DNA from: Chloroflexota bacterium
GTDB taxonomy: Bacteria; Chloroflexota; Anaerolineae; Caldilineales; Caldilineaceae
DNA length: 64,000 nt
Assembly: GCA_016861025.1 (NCBI GenBank)
Contig: BOKO01000006.1
Location: forward strand, 106,839 to 170,838
Reading direction: 5' to 3'
Part shown: one piece after another, positions 3,001 to 59,838 of the stretch
How the letters are laid out: every line of letters starts with the position of its first letter
Position numbering within the stretch: the stretch's first letter is position 1
Program-made: the position numbers and the translations under genes
Notes under the pieces: generated by a model
Told to the model about the DNA's origin: nothing
The model's database searches: none
Seen by the model: only the letters and a program-made list of their open reading frames with translations

Positions 3001-4160
3001 GCACGGTCGTCGGCATCGGGCTGGATGGCGATCCCTTCCCGATCAACTATTGGGATATGGGCGTCTCTGACAATGTAGGCATGTTGTCGCCGACAAACAC
3101 GCTGATGCAGACAACGATGGGTGCGCTCCCCGACGCCAGCAACATCGTGGGCAGCGCGCCGCTGGTCGTGAGCGAGTATCAGACCTCGGTGAGTGTGGCG
3201 CCGTGGCGCGGCAACCCGCGCTTTGTGGACACCATCATGGTGACGCCGATGGCGACGCCGAATCTGCTGGGCGACTATCACATCGCCAGCGGTTCGCCGG
3301 CGGTGAATGCAGGCGCTGATGGTCGCAACGGCGTCAGCGCACCCGGCGACGACATCGACGACGAAGCGCGCCCGCGAGATGGCGGCATGGACATCGGCGC
3401 CGATGAGCTCTATGGCGCAGTGATCGCCTTCCCGTACACGCCGGTGCGCGACAACTTCAATCGCGCCAACGGCGCCATCGGCGCCAGCTGGGGTGGGCAA
3501 ACTTCGCGGTTTGCGATCAACAGCAATCAACTCAATGTGACCGCTGCTGGACTTTCTACGGTGCATTGGAGCAACCAGAACTTCGGCCCGAACCAGGAGG
3601 CATTCTTCACCTTCACCAACATCGCCGCCAATGCCGAAGAAGTCGGCTTGCTGCTCAAACTCAACGGTGCAAGCGCAGCCAGCGCCAACATGTCGGCGAT
3701 CAACGTGAACTATGATCGCCGCCCAGGTCAGAACAATATCCAAATCTGGACGCATCAGACCGGGCAGGGCTGGCGGCTACGCGCAACGTTCCCGGGCGTC
3801 GCCTTCAACGTGGGCGATCAGCTTGGCGCACGCACACTGGCGGACGGTACGGTGAATGTCTATCGCAACGGCGCATTGCTCGGTGTAGCCAACGTGCTGG
3901 GTGGTGCGGCGCCGCAGTGGCCGGCGGCATTGGCGGCAGGCGGCGGACGCATCGGCGTCTACTACGTCACGCCGGCGAACAGCGTGCGCGTCGATAACTT
4001 CGGCGGCGGCGACGTGCCGCCAGTCTTCGTCCAGATTGCAGCAGAACAGCCTACAGGTCTGATCCAGCCGGTGATGTCGACGGATTACACGGTGCGTCTC
4101 GAACGTCAGATGTACGTTGAGAATTCAATCTTCTTGCCGGTCATCTCATCGTCCCGTTAG
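3..4160 (+). CDS. Giant secreted/surface protein, 5'-truncated by the window edge: Cys-containing beta-rich region, IPT/TIG-like domain, right-handed beta-helix, choice-of-anchor-Q-like segment, C-terminal beta-sandwich, FLPVI tail
   Basis: Frame of ORF 48..4160 is open from position 3 (QPEPTTILGAGVDIGV...), so the true start is upstream. IPT/TIG-like 'FTIEGQGFGATPGQV', repeated GGG/N-ladder beta-helix turns, 'GDYHIASGSPAVNAG...DIDDEARP...DIGADE', ends ENSIFLPVISSSR. Confidence 0.8.
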   Translation, partial: QPEPTTILGAGVDIGVLPILGQGARIDWGVKPYDATGTRGGPRNGGIVGTVSYDTTRNELDPRYAAVEPFQPGIPDIRVNLYQPVRCGANPGTPCDARRQYELAPDGSYAFGRLLGSQLTETWEHPIDCIARDANGAPLPFGNGNQEVLPTDGAGGQALGGRRCIEAPLTGTQVQNGFATLDGNYGFAEGCLTTGYDVVNEQCVGGVAPEPLPAADYLVQVEIPNDTIFGRPLYRVTREEDINIFDGDEFVMPQVPPPACAGALHTVDVAGVGADGPNATYNPAFAEAGGSIYEGQQRPLCDVRLVTLNNGKSIAPTFNLFTEVPIPGKWKGYIIDDLTVSTDPTSINFGEKAGIFNIPIGVYDFTNNLVTTITPDYNGVYEILLPSTYSVNCPMPAGVCAGMYYILGNDPGQPGALNPNYNPQYRTIGATFEIYPGLIVPSDLAPTQIVPGILAGGSQYATPPQCFLDDATPQLFAVSRPFVRLNQPSDNRQFTIEGQGFGATPGQVLLDGALPLQINGWNDRAINVTTPTSIPTGVHQLGIRAANGNATVNGLSFHVIGGGYNPMLFEVGPGRAYATVQAGVDAAAAANGNRPRVVIVYPGATELWNPNGAYFENVVIYSPLTLQGVGPGGVRSDASYVLGTLIDGRGVAGDTDYAEAWRVFVQSINFDGNQALYEGAVVYVLAEANEMTATRSVVIDGMTIQGGDQQGFPNNLTPADPTQREFAAVQGGGIFANAYARYLRITNNILQSNGGAYAGAIRLGTPHLPGALNDNQNDNVTIRYNRIIANGGTNLAGAIGVFSGAENYEIAYNDICGNYSAEYGGGVSHYGYSPNGQIHHNRVYFNRSYDEGGGIMIAGELPADFRVLSPGAGPVSIYNNLIQANLSNDDGGGVRFLMAGNFVYNVYNNIIVNNVSTHEGGGVSLNDAPNVRFFNNTVMNNITTATAMTSNGQAAPSGLATARNSALLQATLPAGAPIFSNPLLFNNIFWGNRAGAFTGGTVVGIGLDGDPFPINYWDMGVSDNVGMLSPTNTLMQTTMGALPDASNIVGSAPLVVSEYQTSVSVAPWRGNPRFVDTIMVTPMATPNLLGDYHIASGSPAVNAGADGRNGVSAPGDDIDDEARPRDGGMDIGADELYGAVIAFPYTPVRDNFNRANGAIGASWGGQTSRFAINSNQLNVTAAGLSTVHWSNQNFGPNQEAFFTFTNIAANAEEVGLLLKLNGASAASANMSAINVNYDRRPGQNNIQIWTHQTGQGWRLRATFPGVAFNVGDQLGARTLADGTVNVYRNGALLGVANVLGGAAPQWPAALAAGGGRIGVYYVTPANSVRVDNFGGGDVPPVFVQIAAEQPTGLIQPVMSTDYTVRLERQMYVENSIFLPVISSSR

Positions 4161-4169
4161 CGTCATACA

Positions 4170-4210
4170 CTTGCAACGGGCGGCGGTGAAATATCGTCGC
4201 CTGTTGCAAG
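4170..4210 (+). other. Intergenic RNA stem-loop (19-bp stem, 3-nt loop)
   Basis: cttgcaacgggcggcggtg-aaa-tatcgtcgcctgttgcaag; all four non-Watson-Crick positions are G-U on the + strand; no U-tract follows. Confidence 0.75.
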
Positions 4211-4239
4211 CCAGTTCGCACCTATTGAGGAGAACACAG

Positions 4240-5553
4240 ATGCGAAAACCCATCTCTCGACGGAACTTCTTTAGAATTGCTGGCGGGGCGGCATTGGCTG
4301 CGGCGGGGATCAGCGTCCTGCCCGGCATTGTCGGCAAAGGCTGGCTTTCACCTACGCAAAGCGCTGGCGCGCAGGATGTCCCGCCCGATCTCTTCTTCGC
4401 GGCCACCGACGGCTGGATCGGTCTGCCGGCGTCGCCAGCCATGCCGCCATATCACCCCGACAATATGGCGCCGACGCCTTTTACGACCTATGTCTTCGGC
4501 TTCCGCAATGTCACAGGGCTGAACCAGACGCAGGTGATGGCGCAGAAGATGCGGGCGCAACATTCAGCGCCGATGTTCTGGGTGAATCAGGAAACCACCA
4601 TGCGTCTGCAGCTCACCAACCTGGGGCTGGCGATCCGCCCGGACCTGGTCGACGCGCATACGCTGCACTGGCACGGCTTCCGTCACGTTATCCCATTCTT
4701 CGATGGCGAGCCGATGGGATCGGTCTCGGTGCCCATCGAGCGCAGCTTCACCTACGTCTTTCGACCGCACGATCCGGGGACGTATATGTATCATTGCCAC
4801 GTGGAGGACATCGAGCATGTGCACATGGGCATGACCGGCATGGTGATCGTGCGGCCAACGCAAAACGGCAACACGTCGCTCTATCCAAGCGGACGCTATG
4901 TCTACAACGACGGCGACGGCTCAACCGGCTACGACCGTGAGTTTGGTCTGCTTCTTTCCGAGGTCTGGAATGAGGCGCACTGGGATGACTCGCACATCCA
5001 GCTCCCACAGTGGACAGAGTACCGCGTCGACTTCGGGCTGATCAACGGGCGCACCTGGCCCGACACGATTGCGCCGAATGCGCCGTTTGCACCGTCAGCC
5101 TCCAATCCCGATGCGTTCACCTTTGCCGTGGCGCGTGCGGCTGACGGCGATTTGACGCCGCCGCCAGGCTCTCCACATCTGCAATATCAGCCTCAATCAT
5201 CGCTGATCACTTGCAACGCTGGCGAACGGGTGTTGCTGCGCTTCGCCAACCTGGGCTTCACCGAGGCGGCGATGACCGTCACGGGGATCAAGTTGCGGGT
5301 CATCGGGCGCGACGCCACCTTCCTGCGCGGGCGCACCGGCGCCGACACCAGCTACCTGACCAGCACCGTGACCTTCAACGCTGGCGAGAGCGCCGATGTG
5401 ATCTTCACGGCGCCCGCCTATCGCGGTCCCGATCCCTACGACACCTACCTGCTTTACAACCGCGCCTCGACGCACGGCAACGGCGGGCAGATGACCGAGA
5501 TTCGCGTCCACCCGGCGGGCGCGTTGCCGCCGCAGACGCTGCCGAACACCTAG
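4240..5553 (+). CDS. Two-domain cupredoxin / multicopper oxidase subunit A, Tat-exported, 437 aa; type-1 Cu site and half of a trinuclear cluster in domain 1
   Basis: ATG 4240 after gaggag RBS; Tat motif SRRNFF; HTLHWHG (4657-4677) and YHCHVEDIEHVHMGM (HCH 4792-4800). Domain 2 lacks His at both ligand positions (EAAMTVTG, YLLYNRAS). Confidence 0.9.
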   Translation: MRKPISRRNFFRIAGGAALAAAGISVLPGIVGKGWLSPTQSAGAQDVPPDLFFAATDGWIGLPASPAMPPYHPDNMAPTPFTTYVFGFRNVTGLNQTQVMAQKMRAQHSAPMFWVNQETTMRLQLTNLGLAIRPDLVDAHTLHWHGFRHVIPFFDGEPMGSVSVPIERSFTYVFRPHDPGTYMYHCHVEDIEHVHMGMTGMVIVRPTQNGNTSLYPSGRYVYNDGDGSTGYDREFGLLLSEVWNEAHWDDSHIQLPQWTEYRVDFGLINGRTWPDTIAPNAPFAPSASNPDAFTFAVARAADGDLTPPPGSPHLQYQPQSSLITCNAGERVLLRFANLGFTEAAMTVTGIKLRVIGRDATFLRGRTGADTSYLTSTVTFNAGESADVIFTAPAYRGPDPYDTYLLYNRASTHGNGGQMTEIRVHPAGALPPQTLPNT

Positions 5554-5592
5554 TCTGGCCGGAACGTGGGAGAACCCAAAGGAGTGAATGCT

Positions 5593-6900
5593 ATGACCAT
5601 GTTCAAGTTCAAGTGGATGCGTTGGGGGCTGGCGTTGGGGCTGCTGCTAACCTTGCTGAGCACAAATTCAGCAGTGCGCCCGCAAGCGGTCGTCGCCCAA
5701 AGCACACCGACAGATGGCATCGTCTGCACGACGAGCGCCAACGCCACCTTCACCCTGCGCACGGAGACCGGCTATGTCGGCATGTCCGACGACAACACTG
5801 TTTTCATGTGGGGCTTCTCGATCGCCGGCCAGCCTTTCCAGCACCCCAGTCCCGTGCTTTGCGTCAATCAGGGCGATACGGTCACTGTGATTGTGCAGAA
5901 CACGTTGAGCGAAGACATCTCGCTCATCTTCCCCGGTCAGGAGAATGTGTTCGCCAACGGTGCGCCTTCAGCGCCCCAGTTTAGCGGCGGAGCGCTGACT
6001 TCACTGGCGCCGGTGGCAGCGGCGAACGGCGGCGCGATGACCTACAGCTTCGTGGCGACGCGCGCCGGCGCCTTCATCTATCAGAGCGGAACCTCCCCGG
6101 ATCGCCAGGTGCGCATGGGGTTGTTCGGCGCCCTGATCGTCCGCCCAACGCGCAGCACCGGCAACCCGGATACTCGCTATGTCTATGACAGCGGCGACGT
6201 CGTCTATCGCGCCGGTAAGGAGTTTATGGTGCTGCTCTCCGAAGTCGATCCGTTCCTGAACCAGGCGGTTGAGCGCGGCGAGCCGTTCGATATGAGCCTC
6301 TACAAACCGCGCTACTGGCTGATCAACGGGCGCGGCTTCCCGGACAGCATTGCACCGAACTTTGCAGCCTGGCTGCCGTCGCAGCCCTACGGCGCGCTGG
6401 CGCGCATCAACCCGTATGACGCCGTCGCCAACCCATACCCGGCGCTCGTGCGTTATCTCAACGTCGGCACGATCGAGTTTCCGTTCCACCCACACGGCAA
6501 TCACGGGCGCATCGTCGGGCGCGATGGTTTCCCGCTGATCGATGACGGCGGCGCCGATCTCTCCTTCGACAAATTCAGCGTCAACGTTGGGCCTGGTCAA
6601 ACCTGGGACGCCACCTTCGACTGGCGCGACAACGAAGGCTACAGCGAGAACAACCCTGTGCCGATCACGATCCCGAATCTGCAGAACATGGCGTTTGGCA
6701 TGTTCTTCAGCGGCAGTCCTTACCTGGGTTTGAGTGGGACGAAACCGGTCGGCGATACAGCGATGACACAATGCGGCGAGTATTACATCATCGCCCACAA
6801 TCATGCACTCTTCCAGTTGGATTCGTGGGGCGTGCCGATGACCGGCCCGGCGACCTTCACCCGCGTCGATCCGCCGTTGCCCAACACCTGCCCGCAGTAA
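5593..6900 (+). CDS. Two-domain cupredoxin / multicopper oxidase subunit B, Sec-type signal, 435 aa; trinuclear-cluster ligands only in domain 2
   Basis: ATG 5593 after ggag RBS; hydrophobic signal peptide. Domain 1 has no Cu ligands (EDISLIFPG, FIYQSG...RMGLFG). Domain 2 has FHPHGNHG (6487-6495) and IIAHNH (6796-6804). Confidence 0.88.
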   Translation: MTMFKFKWMRWGLALGLLLTLLSTNSAVRPQAVVAQSTPTDGIVCTTSANATFTLRTETGYVGMSDDNTVFMWGFSIAGQPFQHPSPVLCVNQGDTVTVIVQNTLSEDISLIFPGQENVFANGAPSAPQFSGGALTSLAPVAAANGGAMTYSFVATRAGAFIYQSGTSPDRQVRMGLFGALIVRPTRSTGNPDTRYVYDSGDVVYRAGKEFMVLLSEVDPFLNQAVERGEPFDMSLYKPRYWLINGRGFPDSIAPNFAAWLPSQPYGALARINPYDAVANPYPALVRYLNVGTIEFPFHPHGNHGRIVGRDGFPLIDDGGADLSFDKFSVNVGPGQTWDATFDWRDNEGYSENNPVPITIPNLQNMAFGMFFSGSPYLGLSGTKPVGDTAMTQCGEYYIIAHNHALFQLDSWGVPMTGPATFTRVDPPLPNTCPQ

Positions 6901-6912
6901 GGAGCGATCATA

Positions 6913-9834
6913 ATGACCAGGTTCACCAAACACATTTTCTGGATCGTTGTTCTGAGCCTGCTGCTGGCAGTGGCGGTTCTCCCCCAGCCGGCGTTGGCGC
7001 AAAGCACGGTGACAATTGACTTGTGCGCCACAGATGGCAGCATGACGCTGCCCGACGCCACGGTCGCGCCGGTGTGGGGCTTTGCCGCCGGCAATTGCAG
7101 CGGCAGCCCCACTGTGAGCCAACCCGGCGGCCCGCTGATTGTCGCCAACGTCGGCGAGACCGTGCAAGTGACGCTCTTCAATCGTCTGGCAGAGCCGGTC
7201 GCCCTTTTCTTTCATGGGCAGCCCCTTCCGCCGGATCGGGCGGGCGCCGCGCCTGGCGGCAGTGTGACCTACACCTTCACCGCCGCCGAACCGGGCGTCT
7301 TCCTCTATGAGGCAGGCCCGTTGACCAACGCGCTGCATCAGACTGCGATGGGGCTGCATGGCGCCTTGATCGTGCGACCGGCGACAGTGGGGCAGGCGTA
7401 TAACAGCGCTGCAACGGCCTACGACGTGGAAGCCGTGCTCGTCTTGAGTGAACTCGACCCTGCACTCAATGCCAGCGCGTCGCCCGCGACCTTCAACATG
7501 AGTAACTTCGCCCCAGAATATGAACTGATCAACGGCGCCGCCTTCCCGAACGCGGCGGTGATCAACGTGGGGGCAGGCGACCGTGTGCTGCTGCGCTATG
7601 TCAATGCCGGCGCGCTGCACCATTCGATGGGCGTGCTCGGCCTCAATCAGCGGGTGATCGCCACCGACGGCAATGTGCGCCCGAACAGCTACCGCGTTGT
7701 GGCGGAGACCGTGCCGCCTGGCGCAACGCTGGACACGCTGGTCACCATCCCGGCCACTGCACCCGAGGGCGCTCGTTATGCCGTACACGCCGGCAGCCTG
7801 CTGCTGCATAATCGCAGCGCCAACGGCTACGGCGGTATGATGACCTTTCTGACCATCCCGGCGGTTGGACCTGGTTCGCCAGACGACGTAACCGGTCCGG
7901 CAGCAACCAATCTGGCGCTTACGCCAAGCGGCGGCGACATGATCATCAGCGCCACGATCGATGACAGCGCCAGCGGCGCCAGCAACATCATTGCCGCAGA
8001 ATATACACTCGAAAGCACAGCAGGGACGCCGGTCGCCATGAGCGCCATCGACAGCGCCTTCGACGCACCAATAGAGAACGTTGCAGGCGTGATCCCGGCG
8101 GCGATGATCCAGGCGATGAGCGCCGGCAATCACTCTGTCTATGTACGCGGCCAGGATGCCGCCGGCAATTGGGGCGCCTACAATCTGATCATCTTGACCG
8201 TTGATAACGCCGGCCCCTCCACTTCGGCGCTGACGCTCTCACCCAACCCCAGCCAGGGCAATGTCAATGTGGCATTGGGCGGCACCGCCAGCGACGTGGG
8301 ACGCGGCGCCAGCATTATTGCTGCCGCCGAATATTTCATCGACGCCAACCTGAGCACCCCGCCTGCCCCCGGCACAGGCGCTCCGATGGGGTTGAATATG
8401 ACGGCGTCCGTCTCGGCGATCACGGCCACCCTGCCTTCCTCCGTGCTCACTACTCTGACGGAAGGCGTCCACACCGTCGCCGTGCGCAGCCAGGATGCCT
8501 CCGGGCAGTGGGGCGACTTTGCCACCATCGATCTGTTGATCGACCGCACTGGCCCTGCGACCAGCGGCGTAACAGTGGCGCCAAATCCAAACAACGGGAC
8601 AACGCCGATCAACCCCAGCCGGCCGGCGATACGCGTCGATGCAACAGTCAGCGAGCCGGGCGGCGGCCCTGTCACATCGACCATCCAGCGCGTCGAAGGC
8701 TTCATCGATCTGGTGGGCGCCAACGGCACGGGTTTCCCCTTCACGCCGGTGGATGGTCTCTTCGACAACCCAACAGAGAACGCCTACGCCTTTATTCCAC
8801 TCATCAATCTGGCGCAGCTTGCTGAGGGTGAGCATCAGATTTCGGTGCGGGGTCAGGACAGCGCCGGCAACTGGGGGCCTGCGACAACGACCCCACTTAC
8901 CATCGATCGCACGCCACCCACGGTTAGCGGGGTGACAGTGACGCCGAACCCGACCAATTCGGCGCCAAGTGTCACTTTAACCGGCAGCGCCAACGACGCC
9001 CTCACTGCAATCAGCGCCGCCGAGTGGTTCGTCGGCGCCGATCCAGGCGCGGGCAACGGTGCGGCGATGGCGATCACCTCTGGCGGCGGCGGCGCAACGC
9101 TATCCGCAAGCGTCAATGTTTCGACCTGGTTGACCGGAAATTATGTCCTTTCGGTGCGTGCGCGCGATGCAGCAGGCAACTGGAGCGCGCCGGTTAGCGT
9201 GACGCTCACAGTGGACGATCTGATCTTCGCCGACAGCTTCGAGAGCGGCGGCGTGGCGGCCTGGAGCAGTGCAACTGGGGCGGTCAACGTTATCAACGCC
9301 GCGGCGATGAGCAATGACGGCGGCACATGGGGTATGGCCGTAACGTTAGCGGCAGGCGCGCCGGGCTACGTCACCGACGCCACGCCCAACGCGCTGACCA
9401 GCTACGATGCGCGCTTCTACTTCCACCCGAACGACTCGCGTGCACCCACCAGCGGCATAACGATCTTTGCCGGTTTCAACGCAGCGAACAACGCTGTCTT
9501 CACCGTGCAATATCGCCGACCGAACCCAACCAGTCAGCCGCAAATACGCGCCCAGGTGATGCGCGCCGGCGGCACGACCAATACGGCCTGGGTCACACTG
9601 ACGAATGAACCTCATGCTGTCGAAGTGCTCTGGCGCTCCGGCGCAAACGTTCCGTTTGCGCTCTACGTTGACGGCGTGCAGCGTGCAGTCGCCAATAACC
9701 AGAACACCGGCGCCTATACACTCGAGGGCGTGCGCATGGGGCCGTCGTCTGGTCTGGCAGGGACATTGAGCGGGACGCAGTACTTCGACGCCTTCCTGTC
9801 AAAGCGATCAACAACTTCGATCTTCGGGCAGTAG
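6913..9834 (+). CDS. Secreted protein with a degenerate two-domain cupredoxin N-terminus (subunit C), four Ig-like repeats and a C-terminal beta-sandwich, 973 aa
   Basis: ggag RBS at 6901; signal peptide ending ALAQ. Same cupredoxin scaffold as A/B (GSVTYTF.A..PG.FLY, ELINGAAFP, GDRVLLRYVNAG) with incomplete ligands. Four 'G.H.V.VR.QD.AGNW' repeats; final domain starts LIFADSFESG. Confidence 0.85.
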   Translation: MTRFTKHIFWIVVLSLLLAVAVLPQPALAQSTVTIDLCATDGSMTLPDATVAPVWGFAAGNCSGSPTVSQPGGPLIVANVGETVQVTLFNRLAEPVALFFHGQPLPPDRAGAAPGGSVTYTFTAAEPGVFLYEAGPLTNALHQTAMGLHGALIVRPATVGQAYNSAATAYDVEAVLVLSELDPALNASASPATFNMSNFAPEYELINGAAFPNAAVINVGAGDRVLLRYVNAGALHHSMGVLGLNQRVIATDGNVRPNSYRVVAETVPPGATLDTLVTIPATAPEGARYAVHAGSLLLHNRSANGYGGMMTFLTIPAVGPGSPDDVTGPAATNLALTPSGGDMIISATIDDSASGASNIIAAEYTLESTAGTPVAMSAIDSAFDAPIENVAGVIPAAMIQAMSAGNHSVYVRGQDAAGNWGAYNLIILTVDNAGPSTSALTLSPNPSQGNVNVALGGTASDVGRGASIIAAAEYFIDANLSTPPAPGTGAPMGLNMTASVSAITATLPSSVLTTLTEGVHTVAVRSQDASGQWGDFATIDLLIDRTGPATSGVTVAPNPNNGTTPINPSRPAIRVDATVSEPGGGPVTSTIQRVEGFIDLVGANGTGFPFTPVDGLFDNPTENAYAFIPLINLAQLAEGEHQISVRGQDSAGNWGPATTTPLTIDRTPPTVSGVTVTPNPTNSAPSVTLTGSANDALTAISAAEWFVGADPGAGNGAAMAITSGGGGATLSASVNVSTWLTGNYVLSVRARDAAGNWSAPVSVTLTVDDLIFADSFESGGVAAWSSATGAVNVINAAAMSNDGGTWGMAVTLAAGAPGYVTDATPNALTSYDARFYFHPNDSRAPTSGITIFAGFNAANNAVFTVQYRRPNPTSQPQIRAQVMRAGGTTNTAWVTLTNEPHAVEVLWRSGANVPFALYVDGVQRAVANNQNTGAYTLEGVRMGPSSGLAGTLSGTQYFDAFLSKRSTTSIFGQ

Positions 9835-9848: not shown

Positions 9849-9890
9849 CTCTGGGGTGTGATGGAGGGGAGTAGCCATCACACCCCAGAG
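9849..9890 (+). other. Intergenic perfect 16-bp inverted repeat (stem-loop without U-tract)
   Basis: ctctggggtgtgatgg (9849-9864) / ccatcacaccccagag (9875-9890), 10-nt loop. Confidence 0.8.
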
Positions 9891-9947
9891 AGCGAGATCA
9901 TTTACCGCCCATCTTCAGCCGAAAGAATCATCGTGAGGGGGATACGC

Positions 9948-10517
9948 ATGGCTGAGCTTTTCTCGAACATGAACATAGCGCCAACTGTCAGCCGACGGCT
10001 GCTCGCGATTGTTCTATTTTGCGCAGTGATCACGATTGGCAGCGTCTACGCCTATCTGTGGTGGTTGGCGCCGACGCCAACTGCAGTGGAGACAGCCAAT
10101 GAATTGCTCACCTTCTCGCTCAGCGATTATGCAACGCTGGATGGCGTCTTCTGCAAAGCGCCGGTGACCGGCGTTACGCGCGTCCTCAGCCCATCGGAAT
10201 TTGAGAAAGAGTTCGGTGTGCGCATCCGGCTGCTCGGCGTCACCGCAGGCGGTGGGCTGATCGACTTCCGCTATCGCGTGGTCGATCTCGCCAAAGCGCT
10301 TCCACTGCTCGGAACGCACGAAACGATGCCAGTGTTAGTCGACAAAGCGAGCAAAGCCGAGTTGCGCGCGCCAGAGACGATGATGCACCACGACGCGCTC
10401 AAGCAGGATCGAACCTACTTCATGCACTACCCCAACGCTGGCAACAGCATTCGACCCGGCGCACAGGTCGCCATCGTCATGGGCGACATCCGCGTAGAGT
10501 GGGTGACGGCGCAATGA
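9948..10517 (+). CDS. Membrane-anchored protein of unknown function, 189 aa
   Basis: ATG 9948 after ggggga; one N-terminal TM helix (LLAIVLFCAVITIGSVYAYLWWL); soluble domain 'GGLIDFRYRVVD...TMMHHD...RTYFMHYPN'. Confidence 0.75.
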   Translation: MAELFSNMNIAPTVSRRLLAIVLFCAVITIGSVYAYLWWLAPTPTAVETANELLTFSLSDYATLDGVFCKAPVTGVTRVLSPSEFEKEFGVRIRLLGVTAGGGLIDFRYRVVDLAKALPLLGTHETMPVLVDKASKAELRAPETMMHHDALKQDRTYFMHYPNAGNSIRPGAQVAIVMGDIRVEWVTAQ

Positions 10518-10551: not shown

Positions 10552-13500
10552 ATGAGACGAGCTTTAGTCTTTTTGCTGCTCTTCAGCCTGGCGGCGGCGA
10601 TGGTGCGTGACGTTCACGCCGCTGGTGCAGACGTTCCCGATTCATCGAGAAGCCAGGTCTTGCATAAAGACCTGGCTTTATCACAGGTGGCGCCAACGTT
10701 GACGCAACAGCCTGCCAGCATTAATAACGGGCTATTGAGTGTGCTGACGCAAACAGCGCCAGATGCGCAGATCACGGTAATCGTCACGCTGCGCGAACAG
10801 GCGGCGCCCGTCATTGCCGCAGGAATGGATCGCAGCGAAGCACGCCAGATGACGATTACGGAACGTCAACGCGTCGCCGCCGCAACACAGGCGACCTTGA
10901 CGCCATTGCTGCAGCGACGTATGGCGCAAAACGCCATCAGCAACGTGATTCCATTTTGGATCTTCAATGGCTTTTCCATTACAGCGACGCCAGAGGTGAT
11001 CTTTGAGTTGTCCGGCCATCCCTCGGTGCTGTCAATTGCCCCGAACACGGTCGAGCTTTCCCTGGCGCAGACAAACCCACCCGAAGACAACATCCGCGCA
11101 ATCAACGCGTCGGCGCTATGGTCTTTGGGCTGGCGTGGGCAAGGAGCAGTCGTAGCCAGCCTGGACACAGGCGTCGACCGCTCCCATCCTGACCTCAACA
11201 GTCGATTTCGCGGCGGCGCCAATAGCTGGTTCGATCCATACGGTCAACATCCTGCGCCCTACGACGCCAACGGTCATGGAACCTGGACAATGGGCGTCAT
11301 GGTCGGCGGTGACGCTGGCGGCAACGCAATCGGCGTGGCGCCCGAGGCGCGCTGGATCGCCGCACGCGTCTTCAACGATCGCAACGAATCGACGGCGACA
11401 GCAATCCATCAAGCATTTCAGTGGTTGCTCGACCCGGACGGCAATCCCAGCACCGACGACGCCCCTGATGTGGTCAACAGTTCGTGGACGCTGGCGAACC
11501 CTGGCTGCGATCTTGCCTTTGAACTCGATCTGCAGGCGCTGCGCGCCGCCGGCATCTTGCCCATCTTTGCGGCCGGCAACTATGGGCCGGCGGCGGGCAG
11601 CAGCCGCAGCCCTGCCAACAATCCCTCCGCCTTTGCTGTCGGCGCCATCTCAGACAACGACCAACTCGCCGCTGTCAGCGGTCGCGGCCCCTCGGCGTGC
11701 AGCGGGGGAGGGGCGCACTATCCCGACCTGGTTGCACCAGGCGTCGGCATTCGCACCAGCGACAACGGCGGCGGCTATGTGGATAATGCCAGTGGGACCT
11801 CGCTGGCGGCGCCGCACGTCGCTGGCGGTCTGGCGCTCTTGCTCAGCGCGTTTCCCAATCTTAGCGTCACTCAGCAAGAGGCGGCGCTGCTCAACAGCGC
11901 AGTCGATCTCGGTGCGCCGGGTGCTGACAACGACTTTGGCGCTGGCCGTCTCGACCTCCTGGCAGCCTATCAATGGCTGATTGCGAGCGGCATTGCGCCT
12001 CAAAACGGCGCCCCCATCGTTGTCAACACTGCAGGCGATGGCGTTGCTGATGATGGGCTTTGCTCGCTGCGCGAGGCCGTGATCTCTGCAAACACCGACA
12101 CGGCGGTCGGCGGCTGCACAGCCGGCGACGGCGGCGACACGATTCTTTTCGCCAATTCACTGCCGCGCCCACTCACGATTCAACTGACGGTCGAGGGCGC
12201 TGCGGAGGATTCTGCGCAGACCGGCGATCTTGATATTGTCGGCACATTGACAATCGACGGGCTGGGGAGTTCCGCACGGTCGGGACTTAATACGCCGATC
12301 ATCGTCGATGGCGGCGGGCTCGATCGCATCTTCGATATTCAGCCTGCCGCACATGTCACCATTCAGGGTGTCGCTATCCGCAATGGGAACTCGGTCACAG
12401 CCGAATCGGGCGGCGGCGTGCGCACGCGCGGAGAGTTGACGTTGCGCCAGCTCTCGATCCACAACAATGCGGGCGGCGGTGTGCGCAATGAGGGCGGCAT
12501 CCTGACGCTGAACAATGTGAGCGTTCTCTCCAACACCAACGGGTACGGCGTCACCAATGTTGCACAGGGCGCGCTGACAGTCAACGACAGCGCGATCAAC
12601 GGCAACCAGAGCGGCGGGTTGCACAACACGCTCGCCACAGCCACACTCAATCGCGTTGAGGTGAGCGGCAACACCGGCAGTGGATTGTTCAATGAGGGCG
12701 TCAATACAACCCGACTTACTGTCAACAGTTCCAGCGTGATGAGCAACACCACGAGCGCCAACGGCGGCGGGCTGCGCAATAGCGGCGTCGGCGCCACCGC
12801 TGTGGTGGACTCAACGCGCATCGCCTTCAATATAGCAACGGCGGCGGGCGGCGGCGTCTTCAACGGCGGCGCACAGGTGACGATCAGCAATAGCCTGCTC
12901 GACCATAACCAGGCGCGAGCGGGCGGCGGCATCGACAACGCCGGCAGCGCGCTGACAGTCGCCAACAGCACCATCAGCGCCAACCATGCCAGTGACAACG
13001 GCGGCGGACTCTCCAATCGCACCAGCGGTGTGCTGCGCTTTGTCACATTGTCCGACAACAGCGCCGGCGGCGCCGGCGGCCACATTTTCAACGACGAAGG
13101 GTCGCTCGGCGTCGGCGCCACGATTGTCGCGAACGCTCTATCTGGCGGCGGCTGTGTCAACAGCGCCGGGTTCATCAATTCAGTTGGTTACAACGTCGAG
13201 GACGCCAACACGTGCGGATTTGCCGGCGCTGGCGATCTGGTGAACACCGATCCGTTGCTTGGGCCGTTGCAGGACAATAGCGGTCCGACGCTGACCCATG
13301 CTCTGCGCATCGACAGCCCGGCGATCAACCGCGTCCCTGCAGGCGTACTCAATTGCGGCGGGCTAATCAATCGCGACCAGCGGGGCGTGACCCGTCCAAT
13401 GGCGGACGCCTGCGACGCCGGCGCCTACGAAGCGACAAGCTGGTTGGGTGACATCACACCGATTCACACAATCCAGGGCGCCGGGCACACTTCCGCGCTG

Positions 13501-15210
13501 GTTGGCGCAACTGCCACCACGCGCGGGCTGGTTTCGGTTGTCGCCGACAATGGATTCTTCATGGAGTATGCAACGCCCGACGCCAATCCTGCCACCTCGG
13601 AAGGCATCTTTGTTACAACCAACGGCGCGCCGACAGTGGCTGTTGGCGACGACGTGATTGTGCTCGCCACGGTCGCCGAAATCAAACCAGGCGGCGGCGT
13701 TGACGAGCTAACCGTGACACGGCTGATCAACCCAACAATCATGACGCTCTCGAACAACAACTCGTTGCCGACGCCGGTTATCATCGGGCGCGGCGGGCGC
13801 ATTCCCCCTAATCAAATCATGAGCGACGCCAACCTGGCGAACTTCGACCCGTCAACCGATGGTCTCGATTTCTACGAAAGCCTGGAAGGGATGCGAGTGC
13901 GCATCGACAATGCGCTCGTCGTCGGCGCAACCGGCGCCAACGACGCCATTTGGGTGGTGGCTGACGGCGGTCTCGACGCAACTTCGCGCACGGCGCGCGG
14001 CGGCATGATGGAGACGCCCAACGATGCCAACCCGGAGATTATCCGCCTCAATCGCTCACTCTATCCAACGGCGCACACCTGGCCCCTGGTGCATGTCGGC
14101 GCAGTGTTCACCGCCACACAGCAGGCTGGCTCAGTTCTGGGCGTCATGGATTACCTCGACGCCGCCTATCAGGTGCGCGTGACGGCGCCGCTGAACGCCG
14201 ACCGCTCGGGGGAAGTGCAACCGGAGACGACAATGCTGACGGGCGATGAACATCGGCTGACGATCGGTCAGTTGAATGTAGGCGGTCTTAGCGGCAACGA
14301 TGACGACGCCCGCTTCATAGCAGCAGCCACCGCCATCGTGTCGGCGCTCGCCAACCCGGACATCCTGGTGCTCGAAGAGGTGGGTGACGACGACGGCGCC
14401 ATCGACGACGGCATGACAACCGCAGCGCTCACATTTGGACGACTGCGCAGCGCAGTGCAAACCGCAGGGGGACCGCTGTATGAATTTGCCCAGATCGATC
14501 CGTTTGACGCCGAAGATGGAGGCGCAATCGGGCGCAATCTCCGGCTTGGCATCTTCTATAACCCGGCGCGCGTTCAATTTGCGTCACAGCCGGGCGACGC
14601 ACAGACCGACAACAGCGTGCTTTGCAGCAACCAGCAGGCAACGTTGGCGCTCAACCCAGGGCGCATCGGCGCCGCTGCCAACCACTTCCTGGATGCGCGC
14701 AAGCCGCTGGCCGCCCAATTCACTTTTGACGGGCAAAATCTGTTTGTGATTGCGATCCATCTTGATAGCAAGGAAGCTGACAGCCCGCGCCAGGGTGCGT
14801 TGCAGCCGCCTGTACAACACTCGGCGGCGCGACGACTTGAACAGGCGCAAAGCGTGCAAAACTTTGTACAACAAATTCTGGCGTGCGAACCCGAAGCCGC
14901 CATCATCGTAGCCGGCGCGCCAAACGACGATCCTTTCTCACCTGCGGTTGCGGCGCTGAAAGGCTCAAATTTGATGGGATTGATGGATTTGCTCAGCGCA
15001 GACGCCGCCTACAGCGAAGTGAGTGAAGGAATTAGCCGCGTAGCCGGGCAGATGTTCGTCAGCGCTGCGCTGTGGGGAAGACAGCCAGCCTTTGATGTGG
15101 TTCACATCTTTGCAGAATTTGCCGGCGCGCCGATTGCACTTGATCCAACCATAGCGCAGCTGTCGCTGACGGCCACCTCTGAGCTATTCCTACCTCTTGT
15201 GGTGAGATAG
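10552..15210 (+). CDS. Secreted S8 subtilase with propeptide + CSLREA domain + beta-helix/choice-of-anchor-Q + OB-fold/EEP nuclease-like domain (catalytically degenerate), 1552 aa
   Basis: Triad LDTG / HGTWTMG / GTSLAAPHVAG; literal CSLREA motif; 'DPLLGPLQDNSGPTLTHAL...DQRG...CDAGAYE'; 'ITPIHTIQG' nuclease-type entry; ends LFLPLVVR. Confidence 0.88.
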   Translation: MRRALVFLLLFSLAAAMVRDVHAAGADVPDSSRSQVLHKDLALSQVAPTLTQQPASINNGLLSVLTQTAPDAQITVIVTLREQAAPVIAAGMDRSEARQMTITERQRVAAATQATLTPLLQRRMAQNAISNVIPFWIFNGFSITATPEVIFELSGHPSVLSIAPNTVELSLAQTNPPEDNIRAINASALWSLGWRGQGAVVASLDTGVDRSHPDLNSRFRGGANSWFDPYGQHPAPYDANGHGTWTMGVMVGGDAGGNAIGVAPEARWIAARVFNDRNESTATAIHQAFQWLLDPDGNPSTDDAPDVVNSSWTLANPGCDLAFELDLQALRAAGILPIFAAGNYGPAAGSSRSPANNPSAFAVGAISDNDQLAAVSGRGPSACSGGGAHYPDLVAPGVGIRTSDNGGGYVDNASGTSLAAPHVAGGLALLLSAFPNLSVTQQEAALLNSAVDLGAPGADNDFGAGRLDLLAAYQWLIASGIAPQNGAPIVVNTAGDGVADDGLCSLREAVISANTDTAVGGCTAGDGGDTILFANSLPRPLTIQLTVEGAAEDSAQTGDLDIVGTLTIDGLGSSARSGLNTPIIVDGGGLDRIFDIQPAAHVTIQGVAIRNGNSVTAESGGGVRTRGELTLRQLSIHNNAGGGVRNEGGILTLNNVSVLSNTNGYGVTNVAQGALTVNDSAINGNQSGGLHNTLATATLNRVEVSGNTGSGLFNEGVNTTRLTVNSSSVMSNTTSANGGGLRNSGVGATAVVDSTRIAFNIATAAGGGVFNGGAQVTISNSLLDHNQARAGGGIDNAGSALTVANSTISANHASDNGGGLSNRTSGVLRFVTLSDNSAGGAGGHIFNDEGSLGVGATIVANALSGGGCVNSAGFINSVGYNVEDANTCGFAGAGDLVNTDPLLGPLQDNSGPTLTHALRIDSPAINRVPAGVLNCGGLINRDQRGVTRPMADACDAGAYEATSWLGDITPIHTIQGAGHTSALVGATATTRGLVSVVADNGFFMEYATPDANPATSEGIFVTTNGAPTVAVGDDVIVLATVAEIKPGGGVDELTVTRLINPTIMTLSNNNSLPTPVIIGRGGRIPPNQIMSDANLANFDPSTDGLDFYESLEGMRVRIDNALVVGATGANDAIWVVADGGLDATSRTARGGMMETPNDANPEIIRLNRSLYPTAHTWPLVHVGAVFTATQQAGSVLGVMDYLDAAYQVRVTAPLNADRSGEVQPETTMLTGDEHRLTIGQLNVGGLSGNDDDARFIAAATAIVSALANPDILVLEEVGDDDGAIDDGMTTAALTFGRLRSAVQTAGGPLYEFAQIDPFDAEDGGAIGRNLRLGIFYNPARVQFASQPGDAQTDNSVLCSNQQATLALNPGRIGAAANHFLDARKPLAAQFTFDGQNLFVIAIHLDSKEADSPRQGALQPPVQHSAARRLEQAQSVQNFVQQILACEPEAAIIVAGAPNDDPFSPAVAALKGSNLMGLMDLLSADAAYSEVSEGISRVAGQMFVSAALWGRQPAFDVVHIFAEFAGAPIALDPTIAQLSLTATSELFLPLVVR

Positions 15211-22126: not shown

Positions 22127-22219
22127 AGACGCCTCCAACTTGCGACGATGCCAGCAAGAGCGCTCCCCCAACTATTTCCAGTATAGCACGATTTAGGGCC
22201 GCCCGCGCCTGACAGTTTA

Positions 22220-25355: not shown

Positions 25356-25492
25356 GATGCGCCTGCTGTCCTTTCTGTTATGAAAGTGAATATGAAAGTG
25401 AACGAAAAGATTCGGTGAAGCGAGGAGACCGACCACCTTGCGAAGGCGTGGGATTGCCATGTCTCCTGAGGCTGAAAGGGGGAGACGGAATT

Positions 25493-29671: not shown

Positions 29672-29722
29672 GAAGCAGACAGAATTGGTGCGGCTCAACA
29701 GTGCAGCACACAGGAGGTGAAT

Positions 29723-43883: not shown

Positions 43884-44129
43884 ATGCAAAGGACAAGAGA
43901 GGAAATAACAGAGGAGGTGAAGGCTGCAGATCGAGGAGAAAGTTTGAAGTTGTAACGCAAGAAAAGGAGGAGAGGGGATGCCGGTTGTCCTGGCCGGCGA
44001 ACGGCATCCCCTCAAGCAACGTCATAGGGAAACGTTCCAGTGCGCTGCACTGGAGGTGAACTCCCTTTGCCGCTGTTGGGCTATTCTACCGCACAATGTC
44101 CATTTTGTTTACCGAGGAAACGCGAGAAA

Positions 44130-48295: not shown

Positions 48296-48333
48296 TAACC
48301 CCGGTCAGCCTTGATTACAGACTAACGGGTATG

Positions 48334-48363
48334 CTTCCAGGAAGTGCAGGAGCTTCCTGGAAG
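48334..48363. repeat. Paired near-palindromes forming an 11-bp hairpin (REP-like)
   Basis: cttccaggaag (48334-48344) and cttcctggaag (48353-48363). Confidence 0.6.
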
Positions 48364-48406
48364 TTGTCACACCCACTCTACGCTTGCAATAGATGACAAA
48401 CGCTTT

Positions 48407-49609
48407 ATGTCAGAACAAATTGCCCTGGGTTTCGGCAACAATGTAGATTACGAGATACTCTGGGATTCCCGCGTCGTGGAAGACTTGATCGTCCGCCACG
48501 ATATCCATGCCAACGAACTGAACCAGGAGCGAGAGATTGATTCAGAGCGCGACCTCGTCATTTCGATTCTATGCTTCTTGCGCTCTGGGAACGGCGGCGA
48601 ACGCTTTGTTGCTTCGTCGGATATTATCGAACGCTTTTCACAACGATTTACAAAGAAAATCACCCTGGGCGGAACGTCGGTGCGCGCTGCGGTGGCGATG
48701 CGCACGCTCGGCTATCGTTCGGCGCTCCATCTCGTCACCATCAACGACCACGTGCGCAGGCTCATTCCAGCCGACAGCTTTTATGTGTGCAGCAATTCAC
48801 AAGACACCCTCTACCCACATCTGATTGTGCAGTTCGACGAAGGAACGCGGGTGTGCGCCAACGATATCGACATTCGCAGCAATCGCGCCAACCGCATTAT
48901 CTATCACAACGACACCGACAACATTCGTATGCACCTGAACGAGGAGTTCGCACAGCTAGTCACGAACGCAAAGGTGCTGCTGGTTGCCGGTTTCAATGCG
49001 ATGCAAGACCGCACCCTCCTGCTCGACAGACTGCACACTGTGTTGCGCATCATGCAACACCTGCCCAAAGACGCCCTGGTCTATTGTGAAGATGCCGGTT
49101 TCTATGACCCGAGCTTCCGAAAGCTGATCTATACCACCTTAGCCGGTCGCATCAACATCTACGGCTTGAACGAGGACGAGCTTCAGTCACATCTGGGTAG
49201 AAATCTGAATCTGCTAGATGCTGAGCAGATGAAAACGGCGTTGGAAGATCTGCACCAACTGATTGGCGTCCCACACATCGTCGTGCATTCCATGCACTGG
49301 GCGCTCGCCTATGGCGAAAACGCAGAAAACATGACAAACGCACTCAAAGGCGGTGTGACAATGGCGACCACACGGTTTCGCTACGGCGATGACTTCACAC
49401 CAGAGAATTACAGGGAAGTGGAGGAGCTGCCGCCCAACCCCAAAGGCTTTGCCTTTAGCAGAGCGATCAAACTGCTCCTGGGCAGTAAAATTTGCTGCAC
49501 CCCAGTCGCACAGGTTGACCAGACAAACGCAACGACGGTGGGTCTCGGCGACGCGTTTGTTGGCGGCTTTTTGCCCGGGCTATTACCCTCAGCAGCCAGA
49601 TCATGGTAA
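48407..49609 (+). CDS. ADP-dependent glucokinase/phosphofructokinase-family kinase
   Basis: IALGFGNNVD, LGGTSVRAA, YGLNEDEL, C-terminal TTVGLGDAFVGG anion-hole motif. Confidence 0.85.
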   Translation: MSEQIALGFGNNVDYEILWDSRVVEDLIVRHDIHANELNQEREIDSERDLVISILCFLRSGNGGERFVASSDIIERFSQRFTKKITLGGTSVRAAVAMRTLGYRSALHLVTINDHVRRLIPADSFYVCSNSQDTLYPHLIVQFDEGTRVCANDIDIRSNRANRIIYHNDTDNIRMHLNEEFAQLVTNAKVLLVAGFNAMQDRTLLLDRLHTVLRIMQHLPKDALVYCEDAGFYDPSFRKLIYTTLAGRINIYGLNEDELQSHLGRNLNLLDAEQMKTALEDLHQLIGVPHIVVHSMHWALAYGENAENMTNALKGGVTMATTRFRYGDDFTPENYREVEELPPNPKGFAFSRAIKLLLGSKICCTPVAQVDQTNATTVGLGDAFVGGFLPGLLPSAARSW

Positions 49610-55642: not shown

Positions 55643-55661
55643 GCGCCTGCAAGCCAGAGAG

Positions 55662-56210: not shown

Positions 56211-56226
56211 TGTGAAGTTCTGCACA
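56211..56226. promoter_or_regulatory. CRP-box-like site
   Basis: TGTGA-agttct-GCACA, a 9/10 match to TGTGA-N6-TCACA, 64 nt upstream of the Crp/Fnr gene. Confidence 0.55.
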
Positions 56227-56289
56227 ACACTGTAGCTGATTGCGCCATCGTACTATTTATGAAGAATTCGTATCCTTTGGGAGGCAAAC

Positions 56290-57030: not shown

Positions 57031-57084
57031 AAAGTGCGAGGATTCGCCCCCTTTCCTCGCCGGATTTCGCTTGAGGGGGGAACC

Positions 57085-59838
57085 ATGAAAGAACAATTCA
57101 TGAAGATAGGGCGGCGGCAAGACAATCGACCGAAACGTATGTACTGGCTCACCTTAATCCTGGTTTTTGTGGCGCTGATGACAAAAACGACCAGCGCACT
57201 TGCACAGGAAGACAACGCAGTTGAACCGGCGGGCGGCAACGCAGCAGACTTCTCGACGCAAATCTTCCGCCCGATCGCCGACACTTATGTCGATTCAGCC
57301 AATCCGAATGATTCATTCGCCGACGCCGATGTCCTGAATGTCGTCCGGATCAATCTTGGCAATGGAAGCATTCTGCAACGCAGCTATCTACGCTTTGATC
57401 TCTCAACGATCCGACGTGGCGCGCCGGTGCAGGCAGCCACCCTCTTGCTCTTCCAAACAACCGGCAGCATCAACCCGCTGCAAATCAACCGGGTGACGGC
57501 AGACTGGAACGCCGCCGCCTTGAATTGGGTGAATCAGCCGCAGTTCATCGGCGTCGACGCCTGGACAGCGCCAGGGAATAGCGGCGAGTATATCGCGTAC
57601 AGCGGCGCTCCTCTGGTTGAACTGGTGCAGAGTTGGGTGAACGATCCTGCGCGCAATTTTGGCCTCATGCTTGGCAGCGGCGGCGGGGCACAGGGCGATG
57701 CGCGCCAATTCTACAGCGTAGATTTCGCACAGAATCTCCCTCCACTCCTTCAACTCGACTTTGCGCCAATCCGCGTCTGCTACGACGCCGATTGCCTGAA
57801 ACCAGCAAGCGACGTTGAAGTCTACAACCGCACAACCGGCAACGCATTTTCAACCGATGAAGCGGGGTATGTCGTGCATGATGGCGAAATCGCTGTCGGC
57901 GACCAGCTCTGGGCGCGGCGTCTCGACGAACGTTTGCCTCGGGCGCAACGCTTCCTGACATCGGGCGAGCCGCAAACAGTAACGCCTGATTCCTTTGTCT
58001 TGTATCCAGGATACAATCGGCCGGAGATGCGGCTGGTCTTGTACAAACCTTTGCTCGTGCGCGATCTACAAGTCTCGGCGCAATGGAATCTGGAAGGCGA
58101 TCCTGCCTACAAGAACGCGCTTGCGCGGCGCATCATCGACGCATCCGACCATTTCTACCGCATCACAGATGGCCAGTTTGCGCTCGGGCGCGTGACGGTC
58201 CACCAAAACTACGAACGCTGGCATGACCCAGACACCGATCTCTGGCTGCATGCCAGCAACACAATGCGTCCGCTTTCCTATATCAAGGGCGATGTCATCA
58301 CACCGACGGTCGATCCAGCGCCGGGCATCGACTTTGTCTACGAGCCGGGCAACATGTATATCGGCAGCCACTGGAATCGTTACGGCGCGCCTCCGACGCA
58401 ACCGCTGCCGCCCGGCGTCGACGTCAGCCGCGATTGGGCCGCCGCGCTCGCCCACGAACTCGGCCATTATCTGCTCGGTCAGTTCGACGCGTACATCGCT
58501 GTGCAGCCCGATGGCGTCGTGATCGAAACCTTTGCCTGCACAGGCAGCGCCATGGGCTACGTCTACCATGCCTCCAACCAGGCGTTCATCTGGGATGAAG
58601 AGCACTGGGCGGACGCCTGCGGCAACACGCTAGGTGCATACAATGTCAAGCGCACCGAATGGCAGACCATCCGCACCTGGTTCGATTGGGTGCAGACGCC
58701 GGAGAGTGTTGTGCCCTTCACCGGAACGTTGCCAATCGGGCTGACCAGTGTGACCTTCATTGCGCCCGCCGGCCCGGCGCCGCTCGTCAACCAAATCTTC
58801 GATCTCGACTATCAGAACGGCGAGTTGCCTTCAGGAGAAGCGCGCGCGTTTCTGCTGCGCGATATGGACAACAACGGCGTTTTTGATCGCGTCCTCGACC
58901 AGGGACGGCCGCCGCAGAATGTGGCGCCGCCGCAGGTGACGCTGACCGGTGCACAGGCGGGCGACCGGCTCTGCGTGATTGACATTGATCCCCACGCCGA
59001 CTCGCCGGAGACGCCGCGCCATCAGTTTGGTTGCCAGGTCATCCAGCCTGGCGACAGCGTGCTGCCGATGCGGCGAGAGCCGACATGGGCGCCGATCATC
59101 CATATCACGCCGCAGACAGTGACGGAGATCCGCATCAATGTGGAGCAGCCCATCGCCGCTGGCGCCCTGCGCGCCGTTCTCTACCCCGAACACGCCGTTA
59201 CACCGACCGTCGCGTTGGAACTGACGCCCGGCGATGATGGCTGGTCAGGCGTCTTCACCGTGCCCGGGTTGACTCCGTCAGCCTTTGTGCAGGTGTGGGT
59301 GGAAGGAGACGACCAGCCGCTGCGGCGTGAGGCGATTGTCGACTACGGCATCGGCGGCGGCGCCGTACCCGGGCCAAAGCAAAAGATCGGCTTTGCGCCG
59401 GTGACTTCGTCGGATGGCAAGGCGTTCTTCCTGTTGCCGGCGCAGATGAGTCTGGCGGCGGACGAATTTGTCGCCATCCAGTCGATGGCTGGTGCGCCGC
59501 CGCTGCCGGCGGGCCTGCGCATCTTGGGGCAGAGTTATCGGTTGATTGCGTTGCCACCCTCGCTGGTCGAACAGGGTTCGATCAATATCTATCTGGGCGA
59601 AGGTTCGCCAGGGTTGGCGGCGCAGGCGGCGCAAGCGGGCGCCGTGCAGGAGAGTGCACGCTCGCTCTACTTCTGGAACGGCGAGACCTGGGAAGAGTTG
59701 CCAACCACCTTCAGCACCGCGGACCATGGCGCCGGCGAGAGCGAAGTGCTGGCTTCGGCGGCGAGTCGGGGCATCGGCGTCTATGCCATATTGACCGAAG
59801 CCTCTACGCGTATCTATCTACCTACGATTGCGCGTTGA
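57085..59838 (+). CDS. Secreted protein with DNRLRE/CBM96-like domain and HExxH metalloprotease domain (CLCA-N-like), YLPTI tail, 917 aa
   Basis: ATG 57085 after gagggggg; signal peptide; 'ADTYV...RSYLRFDLS...ATLLL'; '[11 protein letters not shown]', [15 protein letters not shown]; ends RIYLPTIAR. Confidence 0.8.

Follow-up and report, generated by a model that had tools for sequence, protein, structure and literature searches.

A short C-terminal peptide shared by unrelated exported proteins of filamentous Chloroflexota is a candidate surface-sorting tag

We analysed a 64,000-nucleotide stretch of the Caldilineaceae contig BOKO01000006.1 (Chloroflexota; assembly GCA_016861025.1), called the window below, in which five large open reading frames (ORFs) close with the same short peptide, [IVL]-[YF]-[LA]-P-x-[IV]-x(1-3)-R, here called the tail. 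The window is nearly identical to a contig of the metagenome-assembled genome GCA_023384435.1. By translation, the five tails, all encoded on the + strand, are IFLPVISSSR (4128-4157; 4128-4160 with the stop codon), in which three residues stand between Ile and Arg, LFLPLVVR (15184-15207; 15184-15210 with stop), AYLPVIAR (29645-29668; 29645-29671 with stop), IYAPLIAR (33719-33742; 33719-33745 with stop) and IYLPTIAR (59812-59835; 59812-59838 with stop). The original prediction, made from the letters of the window, had named these five C-termini, and translation confirmed all of them, while its ranges were one codon off, including the stop and dropping the first residue. When the 509 stop-to-stop ORFs of at least 60 amino acids in six frames were scanned, the five were the only large ORFs with the motif; three short, evidently non-coding ORFs matched as well, under a loose regular expression only. 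About 0.002 such ends were expected by chance among the approximately 50 genes of the window, as calculated from amino-acid composition, and the probability of four or more was 4e-13. The scan also bore out that no cytoplasmic protein of the window has the tail, and the kinase-like ORF 48326-49609 carries a chance 'FLPGL' near its end.

All five tails close large multidomain proteins encoded on the + strand. The 5ʹ end of the window truncates tail protein 1 (3-4160, +), of which 1385 aa are visible; its beta-helix, which matches choice-of-anchor-Q weakly, is followed by a lectin-like 'domain X' at residues 1160-1339, and 46 aa of linker separate this domain from the tail. Tail protein 2 (10552-15210, +) has a signal peptide, an S8 subtilase domain, CSLREA, choice-of-anchor-Q and an ExeM/NucH-type nuclease module. 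Tail protein 3, the third gene of a conserved operon described below, is composed of CARDB and PPC repeats; its ORF opens at 25415 and the likely start is at 25613 (MQVTWLTLLLL...), giving 25613-29671 (+). Tail protein 4 (29717-33745, +), from the fourth operon gene, has a signal peptide, a right-handed beta-helix, InlB-B-type repeats and a Peptidase_C13-like region. Tail protein 5 (57085-59838, +) has a signal peptide, a DNRLRE/CBM96 module, a region with a HELGH motif and Ig-like domains. The carriers had been described as large, multidomain and extracellular, and this held: N-terminal signal peptides were clear in four of the five, the N-terminus of protein 1 lying beyond the window edge. 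Their description as unrelated was essentially right. Proteins 3 and 4 have in common only PPC-like repeats of about 120 aa, proteins 1 and 2, both of which match NCBIfam 'choice-of-anchor Q', show weak beta-helix similarity, and neither similarity includes the C-terminus. None of the five had a C-terminal match in Pfam or NCBIfam.

Some features of these proteins are recorded here in their own right. The CARDB/PPC giants carry C-T-G-[HR]-C directly before the tail in the window (CTGHC, 29630-29644) and in the orthologues at L137 13237-17358 and L138 12291-16445, and the L139 orthologue is without it. The CBM96-type polysaccharide-binding module of protein 5 has chondroitin- and alginate-binding carbohydrate-binding modules as its best structural matches. 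Its HELGH motif is conserved, and the region around the motif had no good match in the PDB; from the sequence, protein 5 is possibly a polysaccharide-targeted metallopeptidase.

To see how far the tail extends, we used a DNA scan of 185,579 species genomes made with one codon pattern, TAYCTNCCNNTNATYNNNCGNTGA, which encodes Y-L-P-hydrophobic-I-x-R followed by the stop codon TGA. The scan gave at least 120 loci, and the taxonomic counts that follow hold among the 120 loci listed. Fifty of these loci belong to Chloroflexota, with the labels Anaerolineae, Anaerolineales, Caldilineaceae, Ardenticatenaceae, Thermoflexus, Chloroflexales and Chloroflexia, 11 being labelled Chloroflexota or Chloroflexi only; Dehalococcoidia, Ktedonobacteria and Thermomicrobia did not occur among the labels of the 50. 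The pattern closed a long ORF in 44 of 51 matches in Chloroflexota and in 2 of 70 matches in other phyla (p = 5e-23). The same pattern had 60 matches in viral contigs, of which two closed a long ORF, neither of them tail-like. Otherwise, the matches in other phyla and viral contigs fell in short out-of-frame ORFs. The two exceptions outside Chloroflexota were a Planctomycetota exported protein and a Streptomyces TetR-like regulator. The claim that such tails are lineage-specific and common in Chloroflexota was thus supported by the genome scan and its viral control. Judged from these matches, the tail appears to be specific to filamentous Chloroflexota, that is, to Anaerolineae including Caldilineales, Ardenticatenales and Thermoflexales, and to Chloroflexia.

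The Planctomycetota protein (L021, 1501-2913) ends with RYLPIIQR and would be a false positive for simple tail searches. Its ending may be a family-specific C-terminus rather than a modular tail, and by eye the sequence of the protein (...GGWRYK..., ...DGSWSCD...) resembles alpha/alpha-toroid repeats.

Comparison of the tails gives a consensus of a polar or basic residue, [VIL], [YF], [LM], P, a hydrophobic residue, [IV], x and [RK], placed at the C-terminus or a few residues off it. Position -8, which had been left free in the genome scan, was V, I or L in 32 of 41 carriers, and position -9 was mostly polar or basic. The last residue of the tail is R, K, Q or H, and the stop codon follows 0-7 residues after the motif. 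Tail 1 is the most deviant of the five in the window, and orthologues conserve its longer form (VFLPVISSSR, IYLPAISNSR). The Ala of tail 4 is a rare substitute for Leu; the orthologues of that protein end with FLPMVKR, YLPLTIR and FLPFITR, and those of protein 3 with LLPLIKH, FLPLVSR and FLPVVVR. In one choice-of-anchor-Q subfamily (P0099, P0109, P0111, P0113, P0144, P0153 and P0159), a semi-conserved second element, made of two hydrophobic residues, [IV] and then P-G, was observed 5-12 residues before the tail. It may represent an extended version of the signal, or mere subfamily homology.

The carriers share little except export and the tail itself. In a crude heuristic test for signal peptides, applied to complete ORFs only, 20 of 22 complete tail ORFs were positive, versus 59 of 214 other ORFs at the same loci (p = 6e-9). 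All-against-all BLASTP gave clusters of at most three members, and when 41 carriers were aligned, the invariant columns were tail columns only, within the last eight or so. The carriers hold 58 Pfam families, all of extracellular types, among them C25, M14 and S8 peptidases, PKD, FG-GAP, CARDB, SpaA, beta-helix and CAP domains. These results confirmed that the hosts belong to unrelated families and are linked to signal peptides. Tail proteins were also longer, with a median of 657 aa versus 385 aa for other exported proteins. No C-terminal membrane-spanning segment was found in the 41 carriers, in which no 15-aa window within the final 35 aa had more than 10 hydrophobic residues, tail included. 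This check of C-terminal hydrophobicity upheld the original view that no transmembrane helix follows the motif and that it is not an LPXTG or PEP-CTERM signal. A lipobox was present in none of 20 tail proteins and in 7 of 59 other exported proteins. We considered mutual exclusion of tail and lipobox on this basis, and the trend was in the expected direction and not significant.

Two domain families show that the tail is one of several interchangeable endings. An exhaustive search was made with the nuclease module of protein 2, and the best 150 representatives were examined. Among these 150, about 25 have the tail directly behind a conserved ...SDHDPxVARF end. One homologue, P0206, instead has a classical LPLTG followed by a transmembrane helix and RARTR, and another has a transmembrane helix and then KRRKP; the others stop right at ...SDHDPxVARF. 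Domain X, which is about 180 aa long, ends with DNFGGGT[LM]P and also occurs in P0085, P0090, P0095 and P0103, forms the bare C-terminus of an Anaeromyxobacter protein. In protein 1 and other Chloroflexota proteins, the tail stands behind it on an acidic linker; in P0090 and P0095, domain X sits after the motif. In NCBIfam, domains with such interchangeable C-termini are named 'choice of anchor'. Both families show this pattern, one and the same domain ending bare or with the tail and, in the nuclease family, also with a classical anchor; the tail was gained and lost modularly within families.

The tail is also conserved over long distances within a single family. Homologues bear the labels Caldilinea or Caldilineaceae. 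Among 72 homologues of protein 5, which go down to about 35% identity, 63 end with [LIVF]-[YF]-[LIM]-P-x-[IVLM]-x-[RKQ], some with 1-3 extra residues. Most of the nine without the tail are annotated as partial or are far shorter than the family, and two are distant (E about 1e-12). The family alignment shows an invariant tail Pro behind a variable linker. The Tyr, Pro, Ile and Arg codons vary freely at their synonymous positions, and therefore selection acts on the peptide and not on the DNA. A DNA-level element such as a repeat, a terminator or a mobile-element end is excluded by the same variation. The strict motif was found 43 times at the terminus and once internally, where about one internal match was expected by chance; this single internal match lies four residues from the stop codon, or 11 when counted from the first residue of the motif.

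The AlphaFold2 model of protein 5 had a mean predicted local distance difference test score (pLDDT) of 86.9, the last strand spanning residues 898-905 and residues 906-917 forming coil with pLDDT falling from about 70 to about 50. The tail is thus predicted to be a free peptide and not part of the fold. A strand that completes the last domain of the same molecule was excluded, because the last domains of the carriers are unrelated and the tail is modelled as coil.

Three families have the motif in an internal position, 37-250 residues before the C-terminus. Among the internal copies are those of P0085, P0090, P0095 and P0103, which fall at domain junctions and precede about 188 aa, and those of P0301 and P0319, which precede 37-54 aa. 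C-terminal extensions, commonly of 0-7 residues, and internal copies together indicate that the free carboxylate is dispensable, and they exclude PDZ-type recognition of a free C-terminus. A dispensable carboxylate and motifs placed inside linkers are what one would expect of a reader that recognises the core and perhaps cuts beside it.

A notable internal copy lies in the window itself, in a secreted peptidase-like protein of 740 aa (22309-24531, +) that has a signal peptide and no Pfam match at standard thresholds. The protein holds ...SGNVYLPLISTSGG... in its middle, and the motif core VYLPLI (23770-23787, +; residues 488-493) lies in an inter-domain linker: a conserved N-terminal part is followed by a flexible linker that bears the motif, and then by a C-terminal domain with a papain fold. 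AlphaFold2 modelled the protein with a pLDDT of 82, and the stretch 486-513 that contains the motif scores below 50 between two well-folded parts. The form [VIL]-[YF]-L-P-hydrophobic-[IV] is kept in 36 of 36 aligned family members, with Pro491 invariant and Leu490 present in over 90%; downstream of it, a variable low-complexity linker leads to a very conserved domain of 230 aa. Cys550, His684 and Asn715 are likewise invariant in the 36 sequences. The protein matches Pfam Peptidase_C10 over profile positions 7-193 of 194 with E = 0.098, which is below the curated cut-off, and its model matches the E64-inhibited Treponema denticola C0362 (9arc, 9mdk) with a Foldseek probability of 0.99. C0362 belongs to the papain superfamily and has a Cys/His/Asn triad (PMC11833123). 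Because of the nearly full span of the C10 profile, the Foldseek match and the triad of C0362, we predict that the C-terminal domain is a clan CA cysteine peptidase of the papain fold, similar to C10 and C66. Nothing useful came from searching PDB sequences with the profile of the family or with the C13-like terminus of protein 4. The family comprises 39 clusters, 50-75% identical, from Caldilineaceae, Anaerolineae and Chloroflexia (Ca. Chloroploca, Oscillochloridaceae).

The peptidase gene is the first of a four-gene operon (22309-33745, +). The second gene (24528-25355, +) encodes a small lipoprotein with the lipobox AAVGC and overlaps the preceding stop with its start (ATGA); the third and fourth encode the CARDB/PPC giant (protein 3) and the beta-helix/C13-like giant (protein 4). 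This gene order recurs in four other genomes of both classes, from Caldilineae to Chloroflexales (L137-L140), the L140 contig ending inside the third gene. All complete large neighbours in the four genomes end with the tail, one of them with seven added residues. The operon may be a module for the envelope or a surface structure. Beside the Ca. Chloroploca copy of the peptidase, a VWA/fn3 protein (L138 1-2482) was seen to end with a tandem double motif, AIFLPMLRVPAQGIPNAVHAVYLPLTLR. Just upstream of the operon, both the window (20006-22171, -) and Chloroploca (L138 8385-9731) encode a STAND-type regulator (BTAD or Trans_reg_C with AAA_16).

No description of the tail was found in Pfam, NCBIfam or the searchable literature, though a mention elsewhere stays possible. 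The literature searches gave no described machinery and no paper on one, in agreement with the original prediction. The other unknown genes of the window encode multicopper-oxidase-like proteins, an ion channel, an amylase-family enzyme and a STAND regulator.

The tail shows traits general to C-terminal sorting signals, being carried by proteins with signal peptides, occurring in many unrelated families with swaps and having a restricted phyletic range, so we compared it with known systems. The closest in outline is LPXTG/sortase, which also places a C-terminal tag with a Leu-Pro core and a basic end residue on unrelated surface proteins exported by Sec, and in the homologous nuclease P0206, a true LPLTG signal stands where the tail would be. 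However, Thr-Gly is absent from 41 of 41 carriers and from the five window tails, the tail has neither a membrane-spanning segment nor a basic cluster behind one, and no sortase could be linked to it. PEP-CTERM/exosortase, GlyGly-CTERM/rhombosortase, MYXO-CTERM/myxosortase and PGF-CTERM/archaeosortase resemble it in that a lineage-restricted C-terminal tag on many proteins would be served by one reader, and, as with PEP-CTERM, the tail is found on 'choice-of-anchor' and DNRLRE-type domain families. Those signals are tripartite (signature motif, transmembrane helix and basic cluster) and are cut by a membrane-embedded protease, whereas the tail is a short motif only. PEP, GG, invariant Cys and PGF signatures, transmembrane helices and C-terminal NCBIfam matches were all absent from the tails.

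The type IX secretion system (T9SS) of Bacteroidota, with its C-terminal domain and PorU, shares the two-step logic of Sec export followed by a C-terminal signal, as well as a second envelope layer, and its cargo list closely resembles that of the tail (large hydrolases, C25 and M14 peptidases, PKD, FG-GAP, CarboxypepD_reg). Its signal, however, is a folded beta-sandwich of about 70-100 aa, while the carriers share about eight residues that are modelled as coil and preceded by unrelated sequence; no Pfam or NCBIfam match to the T9SS C-terminal domain was found in the carriers, and Chloroflexota are without a classical outer membrane. That a few exposed C-terminal residues can suffice is known from PTS1 (-SKL), KDEL and the Asn-His-Val signal of butelase, a C13 legumain, in which the transamidase leaving group is tiny. 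These are eukaryotic and use other chemistry, and the tail has no conserved Asn or Asp and does not need its terminal carboxylate. The beta-signal of outer membrane proteins and PDZ ligands are also hydrophobic, aromatic-containing C-terminal peptides. For both, the last residue must be aromatic or hydrophobic and its carboxylate free, whereas the tail ends with R, K, Q or H and tolerates additions; the carriers, moreover, are soluble multidomain proteins and not beta-barrels.

The envelope in which such a signal would work is a long-standing puzzle. Filaments of Caldilineae and Chloroflexales share an outer layer of unknown composition, which has been seen by cryo-tomography and bears protein lattices or fibrils, and they lack genes for the beta-barrel assembly machinery (BAM) and for lipopolysaccharide (PMC13319060; PMC7332563). 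We lean towards the view that the tail is a modular post-Sec sorting tag, read transiently as an exposed linear peptide by a component of this envelope. A carrier would cross the cytoplasmic membrane via Sec by its N-terminal signal peptide, after which the tail would hang free on its variable linker. The envelope component would then read the tail for a short time and direct the carrier to retention on, attachment to, or passage through the outer layer around the filaments. The control of localisation, the transient recognition and the identity of the reader are what we infer from the patterns above.

Several points weigh against this view. Five exported proteins of the window have no tail (4240-5553, 5566-6900, 6913-9834, 22309-24531 and 44040-45410), therefore the tail marks a subset of the secretome. 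Only about 1% of unbiased flanking ORFs carry it, which makes the window, with five, a local concentration and means that the tail is no general requirement for export. The signal-peptide calls rest on the heuristic test described above, and the taxonomic picture is a sample obtained with one codon pattern. An all-against-all comparison of the neighbours of 50 tail loci gave no recurrent gene family beside tail genes. The peptidase family, which is present in the right classes and bears the motif, yet consists of only about 39 clusters, is too narrow as a candidate reader; the clan CA peptidase as a universal reader was judged unlikely, there being no low-identity matches beyond those clusters while the tail is widespread. 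Finally, to our knowledge, bacterial envelope sorting offers no characterised precedent for a tag of about eight residues without a membrane tether.

The original prediction had proposed a lineage-specific anchoring or assembly signal, for example one that works by beta-strand addition to an S-layer or envelope receptor. A permanent non-covalent anchor, either a strand added to such a receptor protein or seven hydrophobic residues, flanked by basic ones, dipped into a lipidic outer layer, remains in our opinion an unlikely but serious alternative. It would suit the hydrophobic, beta-prone core with polar or basic residues at -9 and -1, the exposure of the tail on a flexible linker, the lattices and outer layer of these bacteria, and the absence of lipoprotein signals from the 20 tail proteins, a difference that was not significant. 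Two results point away from it, namely the dispensable free C-terminus and, as we judge it, the size: a peptide of about eight residues would suit transient reading by an enzyme or translocon better than stable anchoring. Binding by single short peptides is usually weak, and the stable surface anchors that we know of are covalent, multivalent or folded domains. An invariant Pro in the middle of a strand also fits poorly, and internal copies followed by 37-250 residues indicate that a terminal strand is not required. In another explanation, which we regard as improbable, the motif would be a protease recognition site for maturation or shedding, for example by the papain-fold enzyme 22309-24531, and the terminal copies would be its minimal form. 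All 36 aligned members of the clan CA family keep the motif in the disordered linker between the N-terminal part and the catalytic domain, the usual place of cleavage in zymogens. In five genomes, tail proteins are encoded in synteny with the peptidase gene. Domain junctions are also where P0085, P0090, P0095 and P0103 have their copies, and one protein bears a tandem double tail. Trimming of 2-4 terminal residues, however, would have no obvious purpose in maturation, the peptidase family is far narrower than the range of the tail, and the AlphaFold2 model places the motif on the enzyme without confidence.

That the tail acts before export or in the course of it, in the cytoplasm or at the ribosome, perhaps as an export-chaperone site or as a degradation tag for unexported copies, seems very improbable. 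Confinement of the tail to proteins with signal peptides, mostly very large ones, is what such a role would predict, but the C-terminus is made and exported last and is badly placed for targeting, most exported proteins have no tail, and homologues in other phyla carry classical post-export anchors at the same position. That the tail is due to chance or is a translated DNA-level element is hardly credible. Nothing except the shortness of the motif speaks for it, whereas five tails were observed in a window where about 0.002 were expected, synonymous codon positions are free, homologues of 35-90% identity conserve the tail, and the control matches listed for other phyla and viral contigs are mainly in short out-of-frame ORFs.

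If the tail is a transiently read sorting tag, it would mark the exported subset bound for the envelope or surface, including large proteases, nucleases, adhesin-like repeat proteins and polysaccharide binders. Being easily searched, it would give a handle on the sorting machinery and improve the prediction of localisation in thousands of metagenome-assembled genomes. Soils, sediments, hot springs and wastewater plants all harbour Chloroflexota in abundance. If about eight residues without a membrane tether suffice, the repertoire of bacterial sorting signals would be wider than thought, and the peptide could possibly serve as a small tag for display or ligation. As a long shot, filamentous Chloroflexota might own a second-step sorting pathway for their atypical outer layer, with this peptide as the signal and a secreted cysteine peptidase or transpeptidase as the 'sortase' that reads it. 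The first examples would be the clan CA enzyme 22309-24531, whose motif would be its own processing site, or the C13-like domain of its operon partner.

Two further observations concern the neighbours of the tail genes. A single-pass membrane protein of 219 aa with no family match (9858-10517, +) is encoded directly upstream of the gene for the tailed S8 peptidase. Three adjoining exported proteins resembling multicopper oxidases (4240-9834, +), the first with a twin-arginine signal, are all without the tail in the window, and a homologue of the third (6913-9834) in L046 does have it.

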